A DNA stretch of 20,000 nt from an uncultured virus (IMG/VR IMGVR_UViG_3300029267_002644) (Duplodnaviria; Heunggongvirae; Uroviricota; Caudoviricetes). The stretch lies in the IMG/VR virus record IMGVR_UViG_3300029267_002644. One strand, given 5' to 3'. The notes beneath the pieces were generated by a model. That model ran no database searches. It was not told the DNA's origin and saw only the letters and a list, made by a program, of their open reading frames with translations. This document shows, piece by piece, positions 196-20,000 of this stretch (its first letter is position 1; the number at the start of each line of letters is the position of its first letter). A program made the translations under genes and the position numbers.

Positions 196-516
196 ATGAA
201 TGATATTGATAAGCATCTTGACAATATTCAAAATGAGTATATTGTTGAGGGTCCAGTAGCTGTAGTTATGAAGATGTTGGGTAAAAAGTCTATAAAGAAT
301 GTTAAGGCTGCTAATAGATTATGTGGTTCTAAATCTGGAGCAGATAAAGCTAAATGTATTGCTGCCATTAGAAAGAAAGCATTAGAAGAAAAGGTTAGAG
401 GATTGCAAGGTGGAATGAAAGTTTGTTTTAAGGTCAAGGATACTGAGAAGTGTAAGAAACAATTTTCTAGAGAGATATCAAAGATACAAAAACAAATAGC
501 TCAACTACCAGCCTAA
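196..516 (+). CDS. Basic helical protein with two Cys pairs; putative internal head protein
   Basis: RBS GGAG upstream. Acidic N-terminus ending YIVE|G, then Lys-rich body with C-x10-C and C-x8-C pairs. Confidence 0.8.
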   Translation: MNDIDKHLDNIQNEYIVEGPVAVVMKMLGKKSIKNVKAANRLCGSKSGADKAKCIAAIRKKALEEKVRGLQGGMKVCFKVKDTEKCKKQFSREISKIQKQIAQLPA

Positions 517-3339: not shown

Positions 3340-4443
3340 ATGCTTAAATTAAATACTGATGAGAAAAGATCTTTACAATTTGAAGTGAATATACAAGGAA
3401 TTAATCACCAAGAATTGCAGGGTGTTTTAAAATTTGTTGTTGGGGAAGTCGAATATGGTTTCCCAGTAAAGATTTTATCCGACCATATTTCTGTAGATGT
3501 GCCACCACTTGACGACATTGTTAAAGTGGGGTTAACCGAAGGCGAAGTTGTGGATTGTAAACTTGACGTCTTTGGTAACGGGTTTTATCTCAATCCTTGG
3601 AGCGGTCAGTTTAAGCTAAAGACTCCAGTAAGGATGGAAGCTAAAATGAGAATTGCAGATGATATACCTACACTCGCTAAAGAGAAGTCCGTTGAGAAGG
3701 GCATGACAGTAACACTCAAAGAAGAAGATGTCGTGGAACGTCATATCACACAAAAACCTGAGGATACAGAAGAGGAATATGGAGTTGAAGCAAGGGAGGC
3801 TCACGAGCCTGATGTTCCTGTAGCTGGTGTTGATACTGATGACGAGGAAGAGGAAGCGGCTCCAGTTAAACGTCCTATGGAGTCTGGAACAATAGATAAA
3901 GCTGAACTCCTTGACATGCTTGAAGAAGTCCTTGCAAGGAGAGAGCGTAGACGTAAAGAAACTATTAGGAGTAAACCACTGAGGGAGAGTAAGCCAGCAA
4001 TCAAACCAGCTAAGAAGGCTTCTCCCCCTCCTCGGAAGACCAAAAAACAAAAGTTGGTGGAAGTCGTTTCAAAAACTGGTAAGCGGTATAAAGTGACACC
4101 CGATGTGGCAGAGCGTTTACAAGAAGTCTCTAATGTTGTTGATAGAAAACTCAAGAAAAAACCAGTAAAGAAAAAAGTAGTTGAATCAAGGAAACCAAAA
4201 AAGAATGATTATGATCCTCGAAGATTAATGGAATCAAGAGGAATGAAGAATAAAGCAATACAGGATGTCATGATTGAGAAGGCTGAGAGTATTGCTGGTG
4301 ATGATCCCAAAGCTAAATTCTATGCACTTGAGAAACTACTTGGAATTCAAAGGGAAGGAAACTTGCTAGCAGAATATGAGCAGGTCCATGATGCATTGCG
4401 TTTCGCAGGAAAGGTGGAGGGAAGTGAAACGGAGAAAGTGTAA
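3340..4443 (+). CDS. Hypothetical protein: ~105-aa beta-rich N-domain, acidic then Lys/Pro-rich disordered region, helical C-terminus
   Basis: 367-aa ORF with AAGG RBS; repeated x-x-E-S motifs (PMES, LRES, VVES, LMES). Confidence 0.85.
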   Translation: MLKLNTDEKRSLQFEVNIQGINHQELQGVLKFVVGEVEYGFPVKILSDHISVDVPPLDDIVKVGLTEGEVVDCKLDVFGNGFYLNPWSGQFKLKTPVRMEAKMRIADDIPTLAKEKSVEKGMTVTLKEEDVVERHITQKPEDTEEEYGVEAREAHEPDVPVAGVDTDDEEEEAAPVKRPMESGTIDKAELLDMLEEVLARRERRRKETIRSKPLRESKPAIKPAKKASPPPRKTKKQKLVEVVSKTGKRYKVTPDVAERLQEVSNVVDRKLKKKPVKKKVVESRKPKKNDYDPRRLMESRGMKNKAIQDVMIEKAESIAGDDPKAKFYALEKLLGIQREGNLLAEYEQVHDALRFAGKVEGSETEKV

Positions 4444-4699
4444 ACTCTGTAGTGTTAAACGAAAGAAATGGGAAACCGACAATTTTTTTGGTATTGAATG
4501 TAATAGACATTTTGTACCGATGATTGTTTTAAAGGAACATAGGACAGAACTAACGGATGGTGAAAAGCTTCTTGTTAAGAGTTTGATCCAATTACATTAT
4601 CCACGTTGGTATCCAGATGGCTCAAAATCTGACTCTGATGAGCACTGGCATATACATTTGTCGAGGAAAAAATCAAATGAAGACCCTCTTTCTATCTGA
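4424..4699 (+). CDS. HIT-like (histidine triad) protein with N-terminal CxxC
   Basis: GTG at 4424 after GGAGG (better than the 4376 start in the track); CKLC near the N-terminus, MIVLKEH, C-terminal HWHIHL matching H-phi-H-phi-H-phi. Confidence 0.65.
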   Translation: MKRRKCKLCSVKRKKWETDNFFGIECNRHFVPMIVLKEHRTELTDGEKLLVKSLIQLHYPRWYPDGSKSDSDEHWHIHLSRKKSNEDPLSI

Positions 4700-5357
4700 C
4701 CTACATTTAGGTAGTCCATTATTTACGAAAAAGGCTGCCGTTGTTGACCTCATATTATCACCAGAATTTGAAGAGCTTATCCTGGTAGGTGATATTTTCG
4801 ACACATGGGAAGCCAAGATAGAAAAGATTTTTAACGACAACCAAGCATTTATGTCGACTGTCTTTGAGGCCTCAAAGCATATTCCAACAACATTTATCAT
4901 GGGAAACCATGACCCAGATGCTGATATCATTAAAGCAAACTGGCCGTTTGTTGGTGTCCATGAGGAATTTCAATGGAATGGCGGCATGATTACACATGGT
5001 CATCAATTCGATGACCTCATCACTAAGTATTCATGGTTAGCAAAATTTTTATTCACAATTCATTGGATTTGCCAGCGTATTTTCTTTATTAACATTAAAG
5101 CATTTGTCAGAAGAATTCTATATTCAGTAGCTGGGCACAGACAGAAAAAGTATTACACTGAGTTGACACTAGACATTGAGAGGGGAGCAGTGGAAAAATA
5201 CAAAGAATACGCATTTGTGGTAATGGGTCACACTCATCTTCCTAAGAAGGCAGTGAGTGGTGCAACGAAGTATATTAATTGTGGAGATTGGATTCATAAT
5301 CAAACATATGTAATTCACGATTCTGAATCAAAGGAATTCACACTCAATCATTTATAG
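4677..5357 (+). CDS. Calcineurin-like metallophosphoesterase, LpxH/YbbF-like subfamily
   Basis: Motifs SDLHLG, GDIFD, GNHD, HGHQFD, GHTH, YINCGDW; start reassigned to ATG 4677 (GAGG RBS). Substrate not determinable. Confidence 0.9.
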   Translation: MKTLFLSDLHLGSPLFTKKAAVVDLILSPEFEELILVGDIFDTWEAKIEKIFNDNQAFMSTVFEASKHIPTTFIMGNHDPDADIIKANWPFVGVHEEFQWNGGMITHGHQFDDLITKYSWLAKFLFTIHWICQRIFFINIKAFVRRILYSVAGHRQKKYYTELTLDIERGAVEKYKEYAFVVMGHTHLPKKAVSGATKYINCGDWIHNQTYVIHDSESKEFTLNHL

Positions 5358-5936: not shown

Positions 5937-5973
5937 AAATAGAGTGGGGAGGGTTGCGCCTCCCCACTTCTCT
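5936..5973. terminator. Hairpin between convergent genes (probable bidirectional terminator)
   Basis: AGTGGGGAGG-GTTGCG-CCTCCCCACT with an A run on the left and TTCTCT on the right. Confidence 0.75.
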
Positions 5974-6433: not shown

Positions 6434-7279
6434 ATGAAATGTTATTACCATACGTCGGACCTGGATGGAAGATGTTCTGGAGCAATTGTTAAACACTATG
6501 AAAGGGACTGTGAATTAGTTCCAATTGATTATGGTTACAAATCAAATCTGAAACATCTCAGAGATGAGATTGTCTATATGGTTGATTTCACGCTAGAACC
6601 ATTTAGTCGGATGATTGATTTAGACAAAAGGACTGATCTTGTATGGATAGATCATCACAAGTCAGCAATCGATGAAGCCAAAAAAAGAGGTTTCGACCCG
6701 ATGGGTTTAAGAGATTGCAGATATGCTGCTTGTGAGTTGACTTGGAAATATTGTTTTCCTAATAAGGACATTCCTTTCGGGGTAAGTTTATTAGGACGGT
6801 ATGATGTATGGGATCATCAATGGTTAATGCAAGGAGATCGAAGTGTTGTATTGATGTTTCAATATGGAATGAGAATACTCGATACGGATCCTTCGTCTCA
6901 GATATGGTCAAAAATACTGGAGTGTGATGATTTATTTATTGACCAAGTTACTACAACAGGAAGGGCAGTAGCACAGTATGTAGAGATCGACAACGAAAGA
7001 TATGCACATGGTTACTCATTTACCACCGAGTTTGAAGGTTATAATTGTATATGTTGCAATCGCGGTATGACAAATTCTAAACTCTTCGACACAATATGGG
7101 ATGAGAAAAGTCATGATCTTATGGTCACTTTCTGCAGAACAAGAAATGCTCTCTGGCTCGTCCACTTATACACAACTCATCGTGCGGTGGACTGTGGCGC
7201 TATCGCCAAGCGACATGGCGGAGGTGGGCACCAAAAAGCTGCTGGCTTTAGATGTAAGAATTTGCCTTTTAGAATCTAG
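6434..7279 (+). CDS. DHH/DHHA1 phosphoesterase (NrnB-like nanoRNase family)
   Basis: YHTSDLDG, MVDF, WIDHH, YDVWD and C-terminal GGGGHQKAAGF motifs. Confidence 0.92.
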   Translation: MKCYYHTSDLDGRCSGAIVKHYERDCELVPIDYGYKSNLKHLRDEIVYMVDFTLEPFSRMIDLDKRTDLVWIDHHKSAIDEAKKRGFDPMGLRDCRYAACELTWKYCFPNKDIPFGVSLLGRYDVWDHQWLMQGDRSVVLMFQYGMRILDTDPSSQIWSKILECDDLFIDQVTTTGRAVAQYVEIDNERYAHGYSFTTEFEGYNCICCNRGMTNSKLFDTIWDEKSHDLMVTFCRTRNALWLVHLYTTHRAVDCGAIAKRHGGGGHQKAAGFRCKNLPFRI

Positions 7280-7291
7280 GAGGGATTTGCA

Positions 7292-7609
7292 ATGGATCTA
7301 ACTGTAATTGACGGCGGATCCCCCAAAAAGATTAAGAAAAAAGATGCTGATGGAAGATTAGCCGTATTTGTAGATCATATGAGGTCCATTGAACAATCAA
7401 TGTCGATGGTTGCTAGAATGGCTGAACAGATTGGATGGGATGAATTAACAAAACGAGCATTGAATAACCACAGGGGGATTCTAGATACATTAGGTTATGT
7501 GAAGCACTACCGTAAGCAGATTATAGAGAATCTCCAAAGCAACGTTCCGAACTTGCAATCAATCCCCGGTGGTAAATTAGAAGGGGAAAAGACTGATGAG
7601 TCAGAATAA
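7292..7609 (+). CDS. Hypothetical helical protein with LxVIxGG-like motifs at both ends
   Basis: AGGAGG RBS; LTVIDGG at the N-terminus, LQSIPGGK near the C-terminus. Confidence 0.8.
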   Translation: MDLTVIDGGSPKKIKKKDADGRLAVFVDHMRSIEQSMSMVARMAEQIGWDELTKRALNNHRGILDTLGYVKHYRKQIIENLQSNVPNLQSIPGGKLEGEKTDESE

Positions 7610-7886
7610 TGATTTAACAATACTTGGATGGAAATTTTGGGACCTATGGCTTCAAAAAATATTTAGAAACGTCGCCTCAATGAAGTTTATATGGTTGTCC
7701 TTTTTGTTCATAGTAGTTGTTTACGGCATGTTCCAGGGTCAGTGGATACAGAATGAATGGGTTGCTAAAATACCACCATCTATTGGTTGTAGTTTGTTAG
7801 GTGGAGGGTTTGTGACGTTAGCAGGAACTAGAATGTATGCAAAAACGAAATTGAGAGAAACAAACGGTGATGATGACCTCACATAG
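7596..7886 (+). CDS. Two-TM membrane protein, possibly holin-like
   Basis: Overlaps the previous stop; SMKF followed by TM1 (IWLSFLFIVVVYGMF), Gly-rich TM2, charged tail. Confidence 0.75.
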   Translation: MSQNNDLTILGWKFWDLWLQKIFRNVASMKFIWLSFLFIVVVYGMFQGQWIQNEWVAKIPPSIGCSLLGGGFVTLAGTRMYAKTKLRETNGDDDLT

Positions 7887-8217
7887 TTTTGGAGACAACA
7901 ATTTTCCATCTACTATTGGAAGTCTTTCTTCCGTTGTGTTCTAAGATGATATTAGATATTTGTAATCGTTTAATTATCCTTTCTATACTGGTCCTTAAAC
8001 TCCATGGTTCATTGTAACTAAATGTGTTTGACAACTCCTTATCAACTACGTAGCTGCCTTCCTGAAGATTAACTAACCATTCTGTCAGATTTAATATTTT
8101 TTGTGTGTTCCACATGGGATTATTTGTTAAAAGTGTGTGACTACCGGTCTCCAATTGTTGGTTGATAGTTTCTTTGAGTTTTTTGATCATCTTCTTCTTA
8201 GACTCTGAGTTTTTCAT
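7879..8217 (-). CDS. Hypothetical protein with internal ~30-34 aa repeats; true N-terminus probably lies upstream of 8217
   Basis: No RBS before ATG 8217. In-frame upstream codons give RSHIFITNHPMKN, similar to internal GSHTLLTNNPMWN; frame closed by TGA at 8259-8257. Confidence 0.6.
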   Translation of the reverse strand: MKNSESKKKMIKKLKETINQQLETGSHTLLTNNPMWNTQKILNLTEWLVNLQEGSYVVDKELSNTFSYNEPWSLRTSIERIIKRLQISNIILEHNGRKTSNSRWKIVVSKTM

Positions 8218-8249
8218 TGGGTGATTTGTTATAAAAATATGGCTTCTCT

Positions 8250-8278
8250 TAGTAAGTCATATTTTAGAAGACTTACTA
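8250..8278 (-). other. 9-bp inverted repeat beginning at the stop codon of the mini-ORF MSIWK (8276..8293)
   Basis: TAGTAAGTC-N11-GACTTACTA; AAGGAGGTG RBS at 8310-8302 precedes ATG 8293. Confidence 0.7.
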
Positions 8279-8328
8279 TTTCCAAATACTCATTCAGGCA
8301 ACACCTCCTTTCCCCACTATGGGATTAT

Positions 8329-8363
8329 TTAGAAAGTGGCTGGATACCGAAATATCCAGCCAC
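8329..8363 (-). terminator. Terminator-like hairpin after 8370..9233
   Basis: 11-bp stem GTGGCTGGATA/TATCCAGCCAC (8336-8363), loop TTTCGG, short TTTCT tail, so probably leaky. Confidence 0.75.
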
Positions 8364-8369
8364 CATCTA

Positions 8370-9233
8370 TCATGGAACGACACCAATAAAAGTTGCTTCT
8401 TCTAGCGGTTTGGTGTCAACGCCCGCCTCTTTTAGTCTTTTTATTTCTTCGTTAAGTTCCGCAAGCTGCTCTGCATACATCTCGTGTATTTTGCTTAGGT
8501 CCGGATACTCTTGTTCTCTCTTGGGTGGCAATGGTGGGAGACCAGCTTCTTTGCGCATCAACTCCTTTTTGATTTGAATTTCTGTATACGCAAGTTCTGC
8601 TTCTCTTTTCATTACCATTTCCACTTCCCTTACTTTCCTCTCTGCCAATGCTCGCTCGACCTGCTGCTCAGCACGTAGCCTTGCACTCAAAGCTTCTCGT
8701 TTCGCATCAAGCAACGCCGTGGTCTTGTGATCAAATTGCCAGCTTTCCAAGAGAATACTCTTTAGAAAGATGCCATCATACATACGGAGTTCCTTAAAAA
8801 CCTCTCCTAATACAGCATCCAGTTTCTGGTTTCGATTTGCGATTATAAGACAATCATCAACATCCCAATTTTCGAAGCCACGGGTGAGATGAGATTTGAG
8901 ACGATTGGAAATCAAATCATCCGGACTCAAAAATTTACCAAGATGGTCTAACTTCTGAGGTTCTGCCATAACGCAGTTGAATATCAATCTAGCAAGAGCG
9001 CCATCAGAGAGGATTATACCAACGTCTATCGTACGCTTTGGATGATAGACAGTTGTACTGCTGGTTGGAAGGGGTTGTTTGGACACTGTATTAGCAGAGT
9101 GGTATCTGTCATAAAACCAACTACCAGCCTGCCATACTAACAACCCCCCAATTATTAAAAATGCGCAGATTACAATCCACGCGCCTTTTGGTTTATCTCC
9201 TTCTGGAGGTGCTTGAAAATCCTCTTCTGCCAT
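8370..9233 (-). CDS. Membrane-anchored protein resembling a divergent SPFH/band-7/prohibitin protein
   Basis: GGAGGTG RBS; N-terminal TM; YDGIFLKSILLESWQFD strand followed by an Ala/Glu coiled coil (AKREALSARLRAEQQVERALAERK), the usual SPFH-to-coiled-coil transition. Confidence 0.6.
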   Translation of the reverse strand: MAEEDFQAPPEGDKPKGAWIVICAFLIIGGLLVWQAGSWFYDRYHSANTVSKQPLPTSSTTVYHPKRTIDVGIILSDGALARLIFNCVMAEPQKLDHLGKFLSPDDLISNRLKSHLTRGFENWDVDDCLIIANRNQKLDAVLGEVFKELRMYDGIFLKSILLESWQFDHKTTALLDAKREALSARLRAEQQVERALAERKVREVEMVMKREAELAYTEIQIKKELMRKEAGLPPLPPKREQEYPDLSKIHEMYAEQLAELNEEIKRLKEAGVDTKPLEEATFIGVVP

Positions 9234-9248
9234 CGGCGCACCTCCCTC

Positions 9249-10418
9249 TTATACCTCCTGTTTCTCCTCACCAACCTTGATATCTTCCCAGTCCTTCTTC
9301 CACAGACCAACATGCTGCATCACTTTCACAAAGATCGTCTTCGCGAAAACGATGATGGATTTCCTTATCAACTTATAGCTGATCCTATCGACGATAACGA
9401 AGATCACAATAATCCCAAATATTTGCCACCATGTGAATCCAAACATAGTCCAATCTCCTTCTTCCTCTATTTGTTTTTGTTGTTTTACCTCTTCTTGAGA
9501 TTCGACAATTTTAGCTGCCGCGTTCTTCCCAAGTTTCTCTAAGAGGTTATCATAGACATCACTGTTAATATGACCAAAATGGTCTTCGAGGATACCTTCA
9601 TCATAGTAGAACTCATACTCCCTGTTCTCCTCTTCTGGCGTCATCCATATTGAGCCGATTTTCTTTAGTTTCCTGCCCTTGGAATCCTCATGTGTTGCCT
9701 TGTTCCAGGTTGGAACATCAATACGGAAACCTCCCGCCTCTCCTTCTAAAAATTTAGCATAGAGGTATCGTTCCTTTTTGGCTCCGGTGAGTTTATCAAT
9801 ATCAACGTCGATTGTCTCACCCTTCACCTTCATAAGAAGTTTGGTGTTCTCACCCTCTTCAGGAGTCACGACGTCTAATGATTCTTTGATTCCCTTAACT
9901 ACTTCCTTGGGATTGAAGTCAACAAGATATCTCCTGAATTTGTCTGTGACATAAAACATGTAGTAGTCGCCTTTGTTTCCACTACACTCGCAGTCAGAGT
10001 TATATATAACGTATAACCCCTCACATAAGGAGTACGGTTGTTCTTCTTCTCTGACGTATACTGCGTGTTGAACTTTGTTCTTATACTTTCCGATCTCGAG
10101 TTCTACAACACACCTCTCGTCAAAAAGACTGTCTTTCGTATCGTCAGACTGACCCATTCGAACTTGGTGGTCGCAAATTTGCATACTAAGATCGTAGTCT
10201 TTAAACTCCAACATAAACTCGTTGGTGTTCATTTTCTCTGCCCCAAGCTGCTCTTCAATCGGCGGTCCGGACTCCCACATCTTTTCCCAGTTAATGAGAT
10301 CGAGCCAACCAGTGAATCCAATAAACAAAACAACACAACCAACAATCACAATCCACATATGTTTAGCTTTGATATCCTTATCCTCCTTCGGCCATGATGC
10401 CTTCACCAAACCAGTCAC
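9249..10418 (-). CDS. Membrane protein with N- and C-terminal TM helices flanking a ~290-aa acidic domain
   Basis: TM WIVIVGCVVLFIGFTGW and TM FTWWQIFGIIVIFVIV; start uncertain (TTG 10409 or GTG 10406 fit the RBS better than 10418). Confidence 0.85.
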   Translation of the reverse strand: MTGLVKASWPKEDKDIKAKHMWIVIVGCVVLFIGFTGWLDLINWEKMWESGPPIEEQLGAEKMNTNEFMLEFKDYDLSMQICDHQVRMGQSDDTKDSLFDERCVVELEIGKYKNKVQHAVYVREEEQPYSLCEGLYVIYNSDCECSGNKGDYYMFYVTDKFRRYLVDFNPKEVVKGIKESLDVVTPEEGENTKLLMKVKGETIDVDIDKLTGAKKERYLYAKFLEGEAGGFRIDVPTWNKATHEDSKGRKLKKIGSIWMTPEEENREYEFYYDEGILEDHFGHINSDVYDNLLEKLGKNAAAKIVESQEEVKQQKQIEEEGDWTMFGFTWWQIFGIIVIFVIVDRISYKLIRKSIIVFAKTIFVKVMQHVGLWKKDWEDIKVGEEKQEV

Positions 10419-12407: not shown

Positions 12408-13340
12408 ATGAAAATATCTATGAAGTTCGAAACTGCCAAGAATGTTTTCTTGGTTGCAATAGCCATTGCAGTCCTTGGTGCTGCTTATGTCGGCGCCCAA
12501 GAAATTATGAATCACTTTGCTCTAAAGAATAAATTGATACAAGAGCAGATGGTCGTATTGAAAGAGAGTGTTGTAAGCAATCGCATTCAGATTGATACAG
12601 CGGCTCTTGAGAAGAAGATTAGTGACCTAGATAGATCTATTACTGCCCTTGTCAAAGAAAGAGATCAACAAATCACAGATATTGGTAAGACAGTTGTTAG
12701 TATGAAAAAGTCTGTAGATTTAGTTAACAGGAAATCAGAACATGTATACAAAGGAAAGTTTGAGCAATATTATAAAGAGATAATGGCTAAAGATGCAGAA
12801 GGAAATGAGTATCCAATAGCGTGGGTTATGTTTTATCCAAATAACCCTGAGGACAAAAAATGGAAATCTGGCACATTCGCCTCTGAGATTCATCAACAAA
12901 TCGTGTTGGCTGAAAATGATGAGCGTGGTGATGTTTATGTAGAGGCTTGGAAAAAGGTCAAGAAGCGAGGTTATAAGGAGAGAGAATTCCCTCTCAAGAT
13001 TGAGTCTGCTGAATGGGTAAAGCGAGAGAAGACTGACAAAGAATGGTTCTTCAACCCAAGATTATCTCTTGGTGCAGCCTTTAGTAGTGAAATGTTTCCT
13101 CAACTAGGTGTGAGTTTTTGGAGTTATGGTAGAACAAAAACTGACATGGATTGGAGGATTTTAGATGTTGGGATCGGTGTAGATAGTGACAACACATACT
13201 TTACATTCTCTCCAGCTCAGTACAATATTGGACACTGGTTGCCTTTAATTGATAACACATTTATCGGTCCATTTATTGGCGTTAGTAGCGACAGCGATGA
13301 GTCTACTCTGTTTGGTATCTCACTAGATATCCCACTCTAA
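12408..13340 (+). CDS. Envelope protein: N-terminal TM/signal, long coiled coil, C-terminal amphipathic beta strands (spanin-like hypothesis)
   Basis: VFLVAIAIAVLGAAYVGA; heptads over about residues 35-105; alternating strands RLSLGAAF, LGVSFW, LDVGIGV, FIGPFIGV, LFGISLDIPL. Confidence 0.8.
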   Translation: MKISMKFETAKNVFLVAIAIAVLGAAYVGAQEIMNHFALKNKLIQEQMVVLKESVVSNRIQIDTAALEKKISDLDRSITALVKERDQQITDIGKTVVSMKKSVDLVNRKSEHVYKGKFEQYYKEIMAKDAEGNEYPIAWVMFYPNNPEDKKWKSGTFASEIHQQIVLAENDERGDVYVEAWKKVKKRGYKEREFPLKIESAEWVKREKTDKEWFFNPRLSLGAAFSSEMFPQLGVSFWSYGRTKTDMDWRILDVGIGVDSDNTYFTFSPAQYNIGHWLPLIDNTFIGPFIGVSSDSDESTLFGISLDIPL

Positions 13341-13416: not shown

Positions 13417-14415
13417 ATGAGTTGGATTACGAATTTTTTTAAATGGTTGTCAAATCTATTATGTGATATTTTTGGTTTGGATTGTGGTACGGCTGGAGAT
13501 GGAAAGCCACCAGATGTTGTGATTACGGACCCACCTGGTGATCCGTTTCCCTCACAACCAAATAAGTATGCTGTAATTGTTGGGGTAAGTAAATATTGGG
13601 ATAGCAGTATGGATCTCCACGGTCCTCAAAATGATGTTACAGAGATTTGGACTTTGTTGAAAGACGTCTATGGTTTTCCTCAGGAAAACTTGAGGGTTCT
13701 TGTTAATGAAAGAGCAAAAGAGCATCATATCATTGACAGACTAGAATGGCTACTAAGTAACACTGAAGCTGGAGATGAATTAGTATTCTACTTCTCAGGT
13801 CATGGTAGTCAGTTGAGGGATCGTGATGGTGATGAACTTGATGATGGTATGGACGAATTTGTCCTACCTCATGATTTTACATGGGATACAACACATTATA
13901 TTATTGATGATCATCTTTATGATATTTTCAAGGATCTTGCACCAGGTGCTAATCTGACTATGATTTGTGATTCTTGTCACAGTGGAACAATGACAAGGAG
14001 TATCAAACCACCTAAACAAAATCCTAAGAAACTGCAAGTTCAAAAGAGAGTAGTGTATCCACCATTTGACCTTGAAGCCAGGTTTAAAGACGTAGAACTA
14101 CCTGTTAATAAATTTGGGGCAAAATCTGAAGAGGGTCAGATTAAGTCGGCAGACCAACGACATGTATTGTTGTCAGGTTGTAGAGATGATCAAGTATCTT
14201 GGAGTGCTGTATTTGACGGTGGATACTGGCATGGTGGTTTGTCATATTATCTAGTCAAAGCGCTCAAGAAGAACCCAAATTTGACATGGAGGGAAGTACT
14301 ACCAGAAATTAATAGAGGGTTGGAGGCGAAAGGTCTGGATCAAAACCCTCAGCTTTCAGGAATGGATAAATTATTGGATAGACCCGTATTTGGAGGAGCC
14401 AAAAAAGACGAATAA
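13417..14415 (+). CDS. Metacaspase / caspase-like cysteine protease (peptidase C14)
   Basis: AVIVGVSKY, LHGPQNDV, catalytic His in FYFSGHG, acidic DGDELDDGMDE, catalytic Cys in DSCHSG, p10 LLSGCRDDQVS, QNPQL. Confidence 0.95.
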   Translation: MSWITNFFKWLSNLLCDIFGLDCGTAGDGKPPDVVITDPPGDPFPSQPNKYAVIVGVSKYWDSSMDLHGPQNDVTEIWTLLKDVYGFPQENLRVLVNERAKEHHIIDRLEWLLSNTEAGDELVFYFSGHGSQLRDRDGDELDDGMDEFVLPHDFTWDTTHYIIDDHLYDIFKDLAPGANLTMICDSCHSGTMTRSIKPPKQNPKKLQVQKRVVYPPFDLEARFKDVELPVNKFGAKSEEGQIKSADQRHVLLSGCRDDQVSWSAVFDGGYWHGGLSYYLVKALKKNPNLTWREVLPEINRGLEAKGLDQNPQLSGMDKLLDRPVFGGAKKDE

Positions 14416-14853: not shown

Positions 14854-15432
14854 ATGATTTTGCACGCACAGGAAATTGAAAAGTTGTTAGAGAAGAACAT
14901 GACGGCTAAGGGGTTTTCTTTTTGGAAAGCATTGAGTGAACGTTTACCAAACATCTGGGAAAGACCTACATCTTCAACTGGTAAGTATCATAAGAAGGCT
15001 GATGGAACAATTCCAGATCAGGCGGAGCATACATATCAAATGTTATATGCTGCTTCAAAAGTGTCAAGGATGTTTAACATTGCTCCAAAGACACCAAAGA
15101 TGGACATGTTGATGTTGGCAATTGCTCTCCACGATTCTCTAAAGTATGGAAAGGACGGAAAGAGACAACACACTGACTACAAACATGACCAGGCTGCTGG
15201 AAATCTTATTAAGGATAATAAAGAAACATTCCAAAAGCTATTAACAGAGTCTCAAGTTGGAATCTTGGAGGATGCAGTTAGATTCCATAGTGGGCAATGG
15301 AGCACGGACGTTAAGAGCAAAAAGAAGTTTAATTTTAACGATAGAGACCCAATAGCAATGTTTGTTCATACCTTGGATATGCTCAGCACTGCTGATGCTC
15401 TTAAAACCGACGTAGACGACATACCATTTTAA
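14854..15432 (+). CDS. HD-domain phosphohydrolase (phage type)
   Basis: SSTGKYH, EHT, ALHDSLKYG, KH, FHSGQW, VHTLDML motifs. Confidence 0.9.
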   Translation: MILHAQEIEKLLEKNMTAKGFSFWKALSERLPNIWERPTSSTGKYHKKADGTIPDQAEHTYQMLYAASKVSRMFNIAPKTPKMDMLMLAIALHDSLKYGKDGKRQHTDYKHDQAAGNLIKDNKETFQKLLTESQVGILEDAVRFHSGQWSTDVKSKKKFNFNDRDPIAMFVHTLDMLSTADALKTDVDDIPF

Positions 15433-15438
15433 GGATTC

Positions 15439-15475
15439 ATAGGAGGGAAGATTATTTAGTCTTCCCTCCTATTTT
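15439..15475 (+). terminator. Intrinsic terminator after the HD gene
   Basis: 13-bp stem ATAGGAGGGAAGA/TCTTCCCTCCTAT followed by TTT. Confidence 0.8.
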
Positions 15476-15600: not shown

Positions 15601-16383
15601 ATGGGTTCTTTATCAGATTATGTAGAAAATGAAATTCTGGATCATGTATTGAAGACAGCAGACTGGGCGCAGCCAACTGCGATCTATGTCGGTCTTTCAA
15701 CTGCTGATCCTACAGACGACGCTACTGGTATTGCAGAACCTGCTGGAAACGGTTACGCCCGTGTACAACACGACAACTGGGACGCCGCTTCCGCAAGGGC
15801 AACTGAAAACACTGGTACAGTATCCTTCCCTGAAGCAACTGGCTCTTGGGGAACAATTACTCACTTCTTCCTGAGCGATCAATCCACAGGCGGCAACATG
15901 CTAGCTCACGGTGCTCTCTCAGCTTCTAAGACAATCGGCTCAGGCGATAACGCTTCCTTCCAAGACGGCGCTATTGACGTGTCCTTCAACACTGGCGGTA
16001 TCTCCACAGACTTCGCCAACAAGATTCTTGACCATATCTTCAAGAATACTGCTTATGACACGACAGCTGATATTTATGTGGCCCTTTCAAGAGCAAACCC
16101 AACTGACGATGCTTCAGGCGTAGACGAGCCATCAGGCAATAACTATGCTAGAGTACAACACAACACTTGGGATGTTTCTTCTGGCGGTGCAACAGAAAAT
16201 AACGGCGCGATCACATTCCCACAAGCATCTGCAGCATGGGGCACAGTAACTCACTTCTTCATGCAAGACGCTTCTTCAGGTGGAAACATGACCTTCTACG
16301 GAGCGCTCGACAACTCCAGAAACATTGGTCAGAACGATACGCCTTCATTTGCTGACGGTGCTCTCGACATTACTATGGACTAA
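15601..16383 (+). CDS. Virion fibre/structural protein made of two tandem ~128-aa beta domains
   Basis: Both halves share ILDH, IYVxLSxAxPTDDA, EPxGNxYARVQH, ATENxGxxxFPxA, WGTxTHFF, GGNM, GAL, SFxDGAxDxx, a pattern common in phage tail/fibre genes. Confidence 0.88.
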   Translation: MGSLSDYVENEILDHVLKTADWAQPTAIYVGLSTADPTDDATGIAEPAGNGYARVQHDNWDAASARATENTGTVSFPEATGSWGTITHFFLSDQSTGGNMLAHGALSASKTIGSGDNASFQDGAIDVSFNTGGISTDFANKILDHIFKNTAYDTTADIYVALSRANPTDDASGVDEPSGNNYARVQHNTWDVSSGGATENNGAITFPQASAAWGTVTHFFMQDASSGGNMTFYGALDNSRNIGQNDTPSFADGALDITMD

Positions 16384-17595: not shown

Positions 17596-20000
17596 ATGGC
17601 TGATGTTGAATATAGGAATCGGGTTGATGTAAAATGGCATCGCGATTTCAAGAGCACCCTACTTGTTTCACAAGTTGGTGGTCAAGGAGTAGCAGGCGGT
17701 GCGATTCTTACACTTGGTGTCACAGAGGAACTTACAGCCACTTGTGCTGTGGTCGCTGATGCCCAAGCTGGTCAACTCGTCACAGGTATTGCTGAAGTTT
17801 TAGGTTCGACCGCTATTACTGCTTCAGTGGCAGAGGCGGACCTTACTCTTGGAATTGTAGAACCGCTATCATCGTCGATTTCGATAGCTAGTGTTACCTC
17901 AGGGTTCGTAACCCTTGGTATAGCGGTCGATTTATCTTCGACGTGTCAGGTACAGTCCGTTGTTGACGCTACCATCACGATGGGTGTGGTAGAGATTCTT
18001 GCATCATCGTCAAGTAACGCATCAGCCGTTGCATCACTCCTGACAATCGGCGCATCGGAATTGATGACAGCCCCTGCTGATGTCACAACCGAAGTTGATG
18101 GTCTTTTAGGGATTGGTATTGTTGAAGTTTTAGGTTCTACTTCTACAAATACATCAGTCCTGTCAGCAGTGTTGACTCTTGGTATTACGGAAGTACTAAC
18201 TGCTACTAGTACAATCAATACCGACATGACAGGAGAACTGACTCTTGGTGTAGATGTTGTTCTTTCTGCGACAGATAATGTAGTCTCAACAGCTGTTGGT
18301 CTCCTTGCACTAGGTATTGTTGAAATACTTGCATCCTCAAGTACAAACACCGCTGTTGTTGATGCTTCTCTTGACCTTGGTCAAGATGAACCATTATCAA
18401 ATTCAACTCTCATAAACTCTAATGTTGCAACTGCTACACTAGATTTGGGTATTACGGAAGTTCTTTCAAGCACATGTGCAGTAACATCCGAAGTCGACGC
18501 ACTACTTCTTGCAGGTGTTACTGAGATATTAACTGCAACTGCTGCTATTACCTCAGAGGCAGATGCAGAATTAACTATTGGTGAATTTGCTGTATTGTCT
18601 TCTACAATCAATATAGAATCATCAATCAGCGCATTCTTAATTCTTGGTATTACTGAAGTGCTTTCAAGCACTATCAATATAATTTCTACAATTCCTACTG
18701 CTACTCTGATAATTGGACATACAGAGTTGTTGGCAACAACTAATGTTATTCAGTCGTCGACATCGGCAGAGCTCTCATTTGGTCAGGCAGAACCAATAGC
18801 TCACACGCTTGAGTCAGGAACTGGTGGGCTTGATAGTTATACAAAACTACTCCTCCATGCTAATGGTGATGTTGGAAATACAGGGCATAATTTAACACAG
18901 TATGGGAACCCAAGACACATAGATACTGAAAAAGTGTTTGGCGACTCGTCTATGCAGTTAGATGGTAATGCTGACTACTGGCAAGCAGCGAATCACTCTG
19001 ACTGGAATTTAAGCAGTAGTAATTTCGTTCTAGAAACTAGAGTTAATTTCATATCTGCAGGAACTGGATCTGATCAGCAAATCATTGCGAAGTATGACGG
19101 TTCTGGTAACAACAGAAACTTTAGATGGTTCTGGTCAAATAACAACAATGTTTATTTTCAATGGACACCTGACGGAGCAACATCAAATTCAAAAACTTGG
19201 TCATTTACTCCAACATGGGGTCAATGGTACCATCTTGCTATTGTAAGAACTGGCAGTAATCTATATCTTTATATCGACGGTACTAGACATGGTACTACAC
19301 ATACAATATCAGGGTCCATTTATAACTCAAACATTCCGTTAAACATTGGTTGTCGTATTGATACTGGGTCTGCTGGTCAATATCTAAAAGCTTATATAGA
19401 TGAAACAAGAATTTCAGTTGGTACAGACAGAGGATGGAATAGTTCTTCATTTACATTACCTACTGAACAATACACATCAGATTCATATACAAAACTATTA
19501 GTACATTGGGATGGTGACGCATCAGAATATGATCATAACGTTAGATGGGTTAGTGGCGAAAATATGGTTATGTCCGCAAACCACGGCGCAGGAGCAAATT
19601 TTGAAGGGTCTTATTACTTCAATGGTTCTAGTAATCATCTTCCATTCACATCTAGTGATGATTGGAATTTAAGTAACAGTGATTTTGTTGTTGATTTCCA
19701 CATAGATTTCGACCAAACATTTTGTGGAAGATACCACAACGTTGGTGACCAGAGAGGATGGGCGTGCTATTACCATAGCTCTTCAAATATTCTAAGATTT
19801 GGCTGGTCAACAACAGGGTCTGACTGGAGTAATGTATCTTGGTCGTGGACACCAACACCAGGTCAGTTCTATCATGTAGCATTTGTGAGATCTGGAAATA
19901 CAATGTACTGTTACATTGATGGAGTGAGACAAGACGCTGGACAAACATTCACAGGCACAGTTTATAATAATTCTAGCGAATACATGTACGTCGGTGCACT
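17596..20000 (+). CDS. Large fibre/adhesin protein (>800 aa, 3'-truncated): ~17 x 22-aa repeats then tandem LamG/concanavalin-A-like domains; missing from the ORF track
   Basis: GGAGG RBS, ATG 17596, frame open to the window end (MADVEYRNRVDVKW...). LamG motifs DSYTKLLLH, WYHLAIVRTGSNLYLYIDG, YIDETRIS; second copy from 19480 with DSYTKLLVH and FYHVAFVRSGNTMYCYIDG. Confidence 0.92.
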   Translation, partial: MADVEYRNRVDVKWHRDFKSTLLVSQVGGQGVAGGAILTLGVTEELTATCAVVADAQAGQLVTGIAEVLGSTAITASVAEADLTLGIVEPLSSSISIASVTSGFVTLGIAVDLSSTCQVQSVVDATITMGVVEILASSSSNASAVASLLTIGASELMTAPADVTTEVDGLLGIGIVEVLGSTSTNTSVLSAVLTLGITEVLTATSTINTDMTGELTLGVDVVLSATDNVVSTAVGLLALGIVEILASSSTNTAVVDASLDLGQDEPLSNSTLINSNVATATLDLGITEVLSSTCAVTSEVDALLLAGVTEILTATAAITSEADAELTIGEFAVLSSTINIESSISAFLILGITEVLSSTINIISTIPTATLIIGHTELLATTNVIQSSTSAELSFGQAEPIAHTLESGTGGLDSYTKLLLHANGDVGNTGHNLTQYGNPRHIDTEKVFGDSSMQLDGNADYWQAANHSDWNLSSSNFVLETRVNFISAGTGSDQQIIAKYDGSGNNRNFRWFWSNNNNVYFQWTPDGATSNSKTWSFTPTWGQWYHLAIVRTGSNLYLYIDGTRHGTTHTISGSIYNSNIPLNIGCRIDTGSAGQYLKAYIDETRISVGTDRGWNSSSFTLPTEQYTSDSYTKLLVHWDGDASEYDHNVRWVSGENMVMSANHGAGANFEGSYYFNGSSNHLPFTSSDDWNLSNSDFVVDFHIDFDQTFCGRYHNVGDQRGWACYYHSSSNILRFGWSTTGSDWSNVSWSWTPTPGQFYHVAFVRSGNTMYCYIDGVRQDAGQTFTGTVYNNSSEYMYVGA
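17707..18810 (+). repeat. Degenerate 66-69 bp (22-23 aa) tandem coding repeats, about 17 units
   Basis: Consensus L-T-L-G-I-x-E-x-L-S-S-T-x4-S-x3-A-x, e.g. LTLGITEVLTATSTINTDMTGE, LDLGITEVLSSTCAVTSEVDAL, LILGITEVLSSTINIISTIPTAT. Confidence 0.88.

Follow-up and report, generated by a model that had tools for sequence, protein, structure and literature searches.

A probable homing-endonuclease remnant beside a bypass-like hairpin in the DNA of an uncultured phage

Introduction

Can a ribosome that has translated a mere five codons leave its mRNA, pass over a hairpin and resume at a matching codon, or is an arrangement that suggests such a hop the scar of a broken gene? The question is raised by a locus in a 20,000-nt stretch of DNA, hereafter the window, from an uncultured virus of the Caudoviricetes (IMG/VR record IMGVR_UViG_3300029267_002644). 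All features of the locus lie on the minus strand, and coordinates are positions in the window. A strong Shine–Dalgarno (SD) sequence is followed here by a mini open reading frame (mini-ORF) of five codons, two stop codons and a hairpin, at the far foot of which a second lysine codon stands in frame with a longer ORF (7879..8217). The preliminary description of the locus put a ribosome hop first and named an excised hairpin and an inactivating insertion as alternatives; the last of these, or a broken gene, comes nearest to our findings, while the hop was not supported as the favoured reading. We propose that a free-standing HNH homing-endonuclease gene has probably been decaying here, and that the ORF and 13 codons upstream of it are what is left of its 3′ part.

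Two bodies of earlier work bear on this question. One study describes HNH endonuclease genes of phages from which the HNH domain has been lost, or in which a short insertion or frameshifts have caused a break (PMC2248197). As to bypassing, the signals given for T4 gene 60 comprise matched codons, a stop codon after the take-off codon, a take-off stem-loop, a nascent peptide, an SD-like triplet and flanking stem-loops (PMC7026636; bioRxiv 10.1101/2022.08.31.505936). The nascent peptide, lodged in the exit tunnel and holding the peptidyl-tRNA, is called 'a key determinant' of bypass, and yeast mitochondrial bypassing elements exist as a further case (PMC7026636). The SD-like triplet (GAG, GGA, AGG or GGG) lies 5–7 nt 5′ of the codon used for landing in the majority of clades, and codon pairs differing at the wobble position occur in known bypass cassettes (bioRxiv 10.1101/2022.08.31.505936).

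Results

The ORF corresponds to the C-terminal part of longer HNH proteins

An exhaustive HMMER protein search with the 125-aa stop-to-stop frame 8256–7882 matched 20 proteins at a cutoff of E ≤ 0.001. Apart from the self match, all of them (19 proteins, 209–485 aa) are longer than the query, the best relative having an E value of 2.0e-14. In the HNH-type matches it is the C-terminal part that pairs with the query, as in residues 186–287 of 297 or 151–251 of 264, and N-terminal of the matched part the relatives carry about 110–200 further residues with four cysteines and an HNH motif. Neither this search nor a word-indexed protein search, which returned the self match alone when queried with the ORF, contained a short C-terminal-only member, and the stand-alone form is thus not a recurrent family.

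We aligned 15 of the matches and a protein encoded on a metagenome contig (L001), together 16 full-length relatives, with the window protein (alignment A1); two GIY-YIG proteins (P0009 and P0020), a repetitive protein (P0012) and one with a long extra tail (P0011) were left out. Identity in this alignment ranges from 25 to 38%. The family layout consists of four nearly invariant cysteines, an HNH motif, one to three G-T/S-H-x-F/L-I/L-T-N-x-P-M repeats and a conserved winged-helix-like C-terminal domain. The window protein covers neither the four cysteines nor the HNH-motif consensus of A1 (HHEDGNHxNDNxWNLxLxLNTEH). A profile was built from 17 full-length relatives, namely 16 matches (P0011 cut to its first 240 residues) and the L001 protein, with P0009, P0012, P0020 and the self match omitted. 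The alignment of the window protein to this profile starts at position 145–155 of 272; only the last ~45% of the family is present, and nothing corresponds to any of the half that carries the four cysteines and the HNH motif. The missing half was not found elsewhere in the 20-kb window either: tblastn with all 19 relatives gave no N-terminal match better than E of about 0.2.

The family is poorly covered by existing models. Pfam HNH_3 gave weak matches, below the gathering cutoff, in two of the 19 proteins (E 2.3e-4 and 3.1e-4), and the PHROG HNH endonuclease phrog_7545 matched four of the six full-length relatives scanned (E 4.1e-5 to 7.3e-4). The repeats may resemble NUMOD3, a likeness that the Pfam model did not confirm: NUMOD3 (PF07460) gave no row at E ≤ 10 for the window 125 aa, the L001 protein and six relatives, in a search whose HMMER filters drop most matches above E of about 0.1. 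Against PDB sequences the family profile returned a RING-finger row (E 0.12) as its only row, and no match to solved structures. By these comparisons this is an uncurated HNH family, with neither a Pfam model of its own nor a solved-structure counterpart by sequence. Its repeat is also present in the two GIY-YIG proteins among the matches, which fits the modular make-up described for I-HmuI, I-TevI and I-BmoI (PMC3664794).

The metagenome scan that gave L001 also gave a second contig of 2.9 kb (L002) with a short match containing an internal stop. At 326–511 (+) of this contig, directly upstream of a 532-aa ORF, the stop-interrupted stretch has 34% identity to remnant residues 54–124; it could represent a further decayed copy or be a chance match driven by the seed.

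Codons upstream of ATG 8217 are relic coding sequence

The ORF 7879..8217 encodes 112 aa, comprising the second repeat (G-S-H-x-L-L-T-N-N-P-M) and the winged-helix-like C-terminal domain of the family. The preliminary description had also considered the codons upstream of ATG 8217 to be, or to have been, coding, and this proved sound. The ORF from M8217 scores 85.6 bits against the profile of full-length relatives and the frame from L8256 scores 101.3 bits, and because of this rise of 15.7 bits we regard the 13 in-frame codons LTKRSHIFITNHP (8218..8256), which have no usable start codon, as real relic coding sequence for the first repeat. Thirteen of the 19 non-self alignments start within the first 13 query residues, that is, upstream of ATG 8217. 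The internal repeat reported earlier is present as well, the 12 residues from S in RSHIFITNHPMKN sharing seven with the internal SHTLLTNNPMWN (counted on the translation).

Upstream of L8256 the remnant frame is closed by an in-frame TGA (8257..8259), and a second TGA (8290..8292), which overlaps ATG 8293–8291, marks how far upstream coding sequence in that frame can once have reached. Reading through TGA 8259–8257 (as X) to 8289 gives 103.1 bits, a gain of just 1.8 bits, and with a gain of this size the old frame may or may not have run through the hairpin. Two gene callers predicted the ORF, at 103 aa and 112 aa. The G+C content of the remnant (0.331, vs 0.40 for the window) is the second-lowest among the ORFs.

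An AlphaFold model of the 125 residues, with A1 as alignment, has a mean pLDDT of 84.4 and reaches 93–97 over the C-terminal domain (residues 50–120). Among its structural neighbours in VIA-align winged-helix domains predominate; the best aligns over 66 residues with Z 7.3 and an rmsd of 2.4, in a Z range that the tool calls middling and possibly just a common arrangement, and Foldseek against the PDB gave none at E ≤ 0.001 (best E = 0.095). The model suggests that the C-terminal domain resembles winged-helix DNA binders.

Layout of the mini-ORF, the hairpin and the second lysine codon

The sequence features on which the hop had been based are all present. The strong SD sequence AAGGAGGTG (8310–8302), of the type found before most genes of the window, has 10 nt between the end of its GGAGG core and ATG 8293. 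The mini-ORF ATG AGT ATT TGG AAA (MSIWK), then TAG TAA, occupies 8273..8293, with ATG at 8293–8291, TAG at 8278–8276 and TAA at 8275–8273. A perfect, AU-rich 9-bp hairpin with an 11-nt loop (8250..8278; arms 8278–8270 and 8258–8250; predicted −9.5 kcal/mol) begins at this TAG and leaves the presumed take-off codon AAA 8281–8279 outside the stem. TGA 8259–8257 lies within its 3′ arm, and AAG 8250–8248 shares the frame of the ORF 7879..8217. Omission of 28 nt (8278–8251) or of 31 nt (8278–8248) joins the mini-ORF frame to the ORF frame. A weaker alternative inverted repeat with 11 of 12 pairs (8234..8265; 8265–8254 and 8245–8234; −5.3 kcal/mol) overlaps the hairpin and competes for its 3′ arm, so that the two structures are mutually exclusive.

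The five residues ahead of the stop codon contribute nothing to the match with the family, the products of a hop scoring 101.2 bits (31-nt skip) and 100.6 bits (28-nt skip) vs 101.3 bits without MSIWK. An M-x-x-I-W-K-like N-terminus is found in some HNH endonucleases of another type; with five residues, MSIWK is too short for a comparison with it. Two successive −1 frameshifts were also considered as a way of joining the frames and were rejected, inspection of the sequence giving no slippery heptamer.

Start signals and transcription context

A GGAGG-like SD sequence is found 6–10 nt upstream in most of the 24 other window starts listed. At the locus itself the sole strong SD sequence belongs to ATG 8293, and neither ATG 8217 nor ATG 8190 has one. 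The remnant is consequently without a complete ORF that has its own start: TGA 8259–8257 closes the frame, the internal ATGs lack an SD sequence and the ATG that bears one is out of frame. Judged from these signals, ATG 8293 and its SD sequence have the look of an existing or former start of a gene, one that is out of frame with the remnant and no longer connects to it.

A strong terminator-like hairpin with a weak T tail (8330..8369; −25.1 kcal/mol), not called by the terminator scan, follows immediately on the stop of the upstream 287-aa gene and lies 20 nt upstream of the SD sequence. The promoter and terminator scan gave no minus-strand promoter-like site in 7700–8700.

Hairpins in the intergenic DNA of the window

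Perfect 9-mer stem pairs with loops of 3–15 nt occur 11 times in the window, compared with an average of 1.5 over 300 first-order Markov simulations. They make up five distinct hairpins, all five intergenic, the one at 8250–8278 included. Since hairpins are common in the intergenic DNA of this phage, the presence of one within a spacer of ~150 nt is no great surprise. The local RNA fold of 8325–8180 is not more stable than shuffled sequences (z = −0.48), and an Rfam scan of 7800–8500 returned two chance-level rows (E 0.21 and 0.71), far under the gathering scores, and no known RNA family. The other four strong perfect-stem hairpins (1272–1294, 5943–5968, 8330–8369 and 15439–15472) have a terminator-like look, and three of them stand directly behind gene stops.

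Copies of the locus and the phage that carries it

Three runs, each from a different study, gave contigs of 8509, 8509 and 8518 nt (word depth 17–27) that have the same sequence over 7400–9000, with 0 differing letters and 0 gaps. Any one of these contigs may be where the window itself comes from, and rare variants do not show in contigs; a further run (X5) covers just 7767–7917. Identical copies were the only ones seen. Searches of the phage collection with the locus, the ORF and the 287-aa neighbour returned nothing, and those of IMG/VR with the ORF and the 287-aa and 389-aa genes returned no usable relative.

The window is phage DNA, with genes for Gp80-type fibre, Laminin_G_3 structural, DHH, metallophosphoesterase, HD and caspase-like proteins among others, and only distant relatives of the phage were found. 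A 260-aa protein (15601–16383, +) has two stretches of Gp80 (podophage GP4 fibre I; E 7.1e-79); with tblastn it matched 128 phage records, all below 60% identity, with hosts that include Caulobacter, Ralstonia and Mycobacterium. A 332-aa protein (13417–14415, +) whose caspase domain is clear (Pfam Peptidase_C14, E 2.9e-29) is unusual cargo for a phage. The window also has three genes of phosphoesterase type in a stretch of 11 kb (metallophosphoesterase, 4617–5357; DHH/DHHA1, 6434–7279; HD-domain, 14854–15432; all +). The DHH/DHHA1 protein matches the PHROG DHH phosphoesterase (E 8.9e-33), and its gene found 12 loci in IMG/VR at 27–57% identity, none of them with other genes of the window neighbourhood.

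Discussion

The question posed by the five-codon mini-ORF and its hairpin is probably answered by the history of the gene behind them. The ORF 7879..8217 and its 13 upstream codons are homologous to the C-terminal part of longer HNH proteins, the nuclease half is absent from the window, and the frame is closed by a TGA in a sequence that is the same in three assemblies. The half that was kept would be DNA-binding, with two repeats and the winged-helix-like C-terminal domain; the half that was lost would be the N-terminal four-cysteine and HNH nuclease, amounting to about 145 profile positions. The truncation boundary would fall between 8290 and 8256, inside or beside the hairpin. The break could have arisen in two ways. 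A deletion of the nuclease half may have left an out-of-frame junction, the hairpin being part of that junction. Alternatively, a truncated gene driven by the SD sequence may later have been broken by a palindromic insertion of ~28 nt, which would be the hairpin. With either history the locus would be decaying rather than expressed: ribosomes would terminate at the TAG of the mini-ORF without hopping, and the supposed hop would be the scar of a broken gene.

Comparable cases exist. The degenerate free-standing HNH genes in the study mentioned above include 'group V' of the Xanthomonas oryzae phages Xp10, OP1 and Xop411, hegG and hegJ of T5, and the T4 mobA pseudogene (PMC2248197). As in those genes, the HNH domain is gone here and part of the DNA-binding region is kept. 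They differ from our locus in the module concerned, which there is AP2 and here consists of repeats and a winged-helix-like domain, in the strong SD sequence, mini-ORF and hairpin that mark the break here, and in that the family described here has no Pfam model of its own. The order of the parts in the full-length relatives is also that of I-HmuI, I-TevI and I-BmoI, which have an N-terminal nuclease followed by short repeated minor-groove modules and a helix-turn-helix-type domain in the C-terminal part (PMC3664794). In contrast to these enzymes, the window has no nuclease domain and its repeats no NUMOD3 Pfam match.

Several observations sit less easily with a decaying remnant. The neat geometry of the locus, with SD sequence, ATG, lysine codon, TAG at the first stem pair, lysine codon at the far foot and a homologous frame thereafter, is not something that a relic would predict. 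No related phage with the same locus was found in DNA and protein searches of the phage collection or in the IMG/VR scans. Finally, a frame of 125 codons is still open, scores 101 bits and has a confident fold, which leaves two possibilities, a recent truncation or a fragment that is being maintained.

Maintenance of the fragment leads to a different explanation, in which the remnant is still made from ATG 8217 or ATG 8190 as a nuclease-free, sequence-specific DNA-binding protein that could, for example, sit on the former target site or serve in regulation. The intact frame and the confident domain model favour it, as do the resemblance of the fold to winged-helix DNA binders and the predictions of the two gene callers. 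The strong SD sequence and the mini-ORF just upstream are in its favour as well, since translation could possibly restart after termination on the mini-ORF. We nevertheless consider this unlikely. Both internal ATGs are without an SD sequence, the 20 matches of the exhaustive search include no short stand-alone member, a terminator-like hairpin lies upstream where no promoter-like site was found, and the middling fold matches may reflect just a common arrangement.

The programmed bypass that the preliminary description had put first would have the peptidyl-tRNA-Lys leave AAA 8281–8279, pass the 28–31-nt hairpin and land on AAG 8250–8248, so that a DNA-binding protein is made under the control of the SD sequence at ATG 8293. 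Several features recall T4 gene 60: the take-off codon has UAG as its immediate neighbour, a stem-loop of loosely similar kind begins at that UAG, and the landing codon is read by the same tRNA (AAA/AAG). Gene 60 with its MobA cassette even shares the link to an HNH homing endonuclease. It also speaks for a hop that the frame after landing is homologous coding sequence and that the sole strong SD sequence of the locus belongs to the mini-ORF. However, the take-off codon is preceded by 5 codons here and by 46 in T4 gene 60, and with a nascent peptide of just five residues there would be no nascent-peptide signal. The 8 nt before AAG 8250, GACTTACT, contain no GAG, GGA, AGG or GGG 5–7 nt before the landing site, unlike gene 60. 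The take-off stem-loop of gene 60 includes the take-off codon and usually has a tetraloop, whereas here the AU-rich 9-bp stem closes an 11-nt loop and the codon stays outside. Moreover, the broken gene is an endonuclease remnant and not a host gene; MSIWK adds no homology, no relative runs on uninterrupted from a start resembling MSIWK, and there is none with which the fused product is colinear. No conserved copy of the arrangement was found in the phage-collection and IMG/VR searches. The short, hairpin-forming inserts in coding sequences of yeast mitochondria are flanked by matching codons too, many of them in essential genes whose uninterrupted homologs are colinear with them; they belong to another translation system, whereas our locus is one isolated instance, in a selfish gene that is truncated. 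A minimal hop of 28–31 nt, dispensing with a long nascent peptide and making a nuclease-free DNA-binding protein from a homing-endonuclease remnant, would if true be the shortest-peptide bypass known, and we regard it as very improbable.

Still less credible is an error of sequencing or assembly, for instance an indel in the hairpin or near 8260, where the preliminary description had considered an extra base. Hairpins and AT-rich runs are indeed error-prone. Against this stands the agreement of the contigs from the three runs, which makes an assembly indel unlikely, as well as the fact that no single 1-nt indel joins ATG 8293 to the ORF: frame A contains TAG, TAA, TAA and TAA, and the ORF frame contains TGA 8259–8257.

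The chance that TGA is read as tryptophan is negligible and we reject it, although under code 4 the remnant frame is open from GTG 8304 (ORF 7828..8304, 158 aa, with three TGA read through), stop use in 24 genes is skewed (TAA 16, TAG 5, TGA 3) and the TGA of the upstream gene is directly followed by TAG, because well-supported genes, including 3340..4443, 6434..7279, 9249..10418, 12408..13340, 13417..14415 and 17596..19998, gain no in-frame TGA under table 4, TGA 8259–8257 falls at a lysine-rich profile position and not at a tryptophan, and the family C-termini end a few residues past a conserved W, as with table 11, where table 4 adds about 17 residues. One of the three TGA-stopped genes is the remnant itself.

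That a homing-endonuclease gene is broken here matters little in itself, since the cycle of gain and loss that the selfish nuclease genes of phages go through is documented to include remnants of this kind. What the locus adds is a caution for searches that look for hops in sequence alone: the scar of a decaying gene can display a tidy geometry of take-off codon, stop codon, hairpin and landing codon. It also points to an HNH family that has so far escaped curation.

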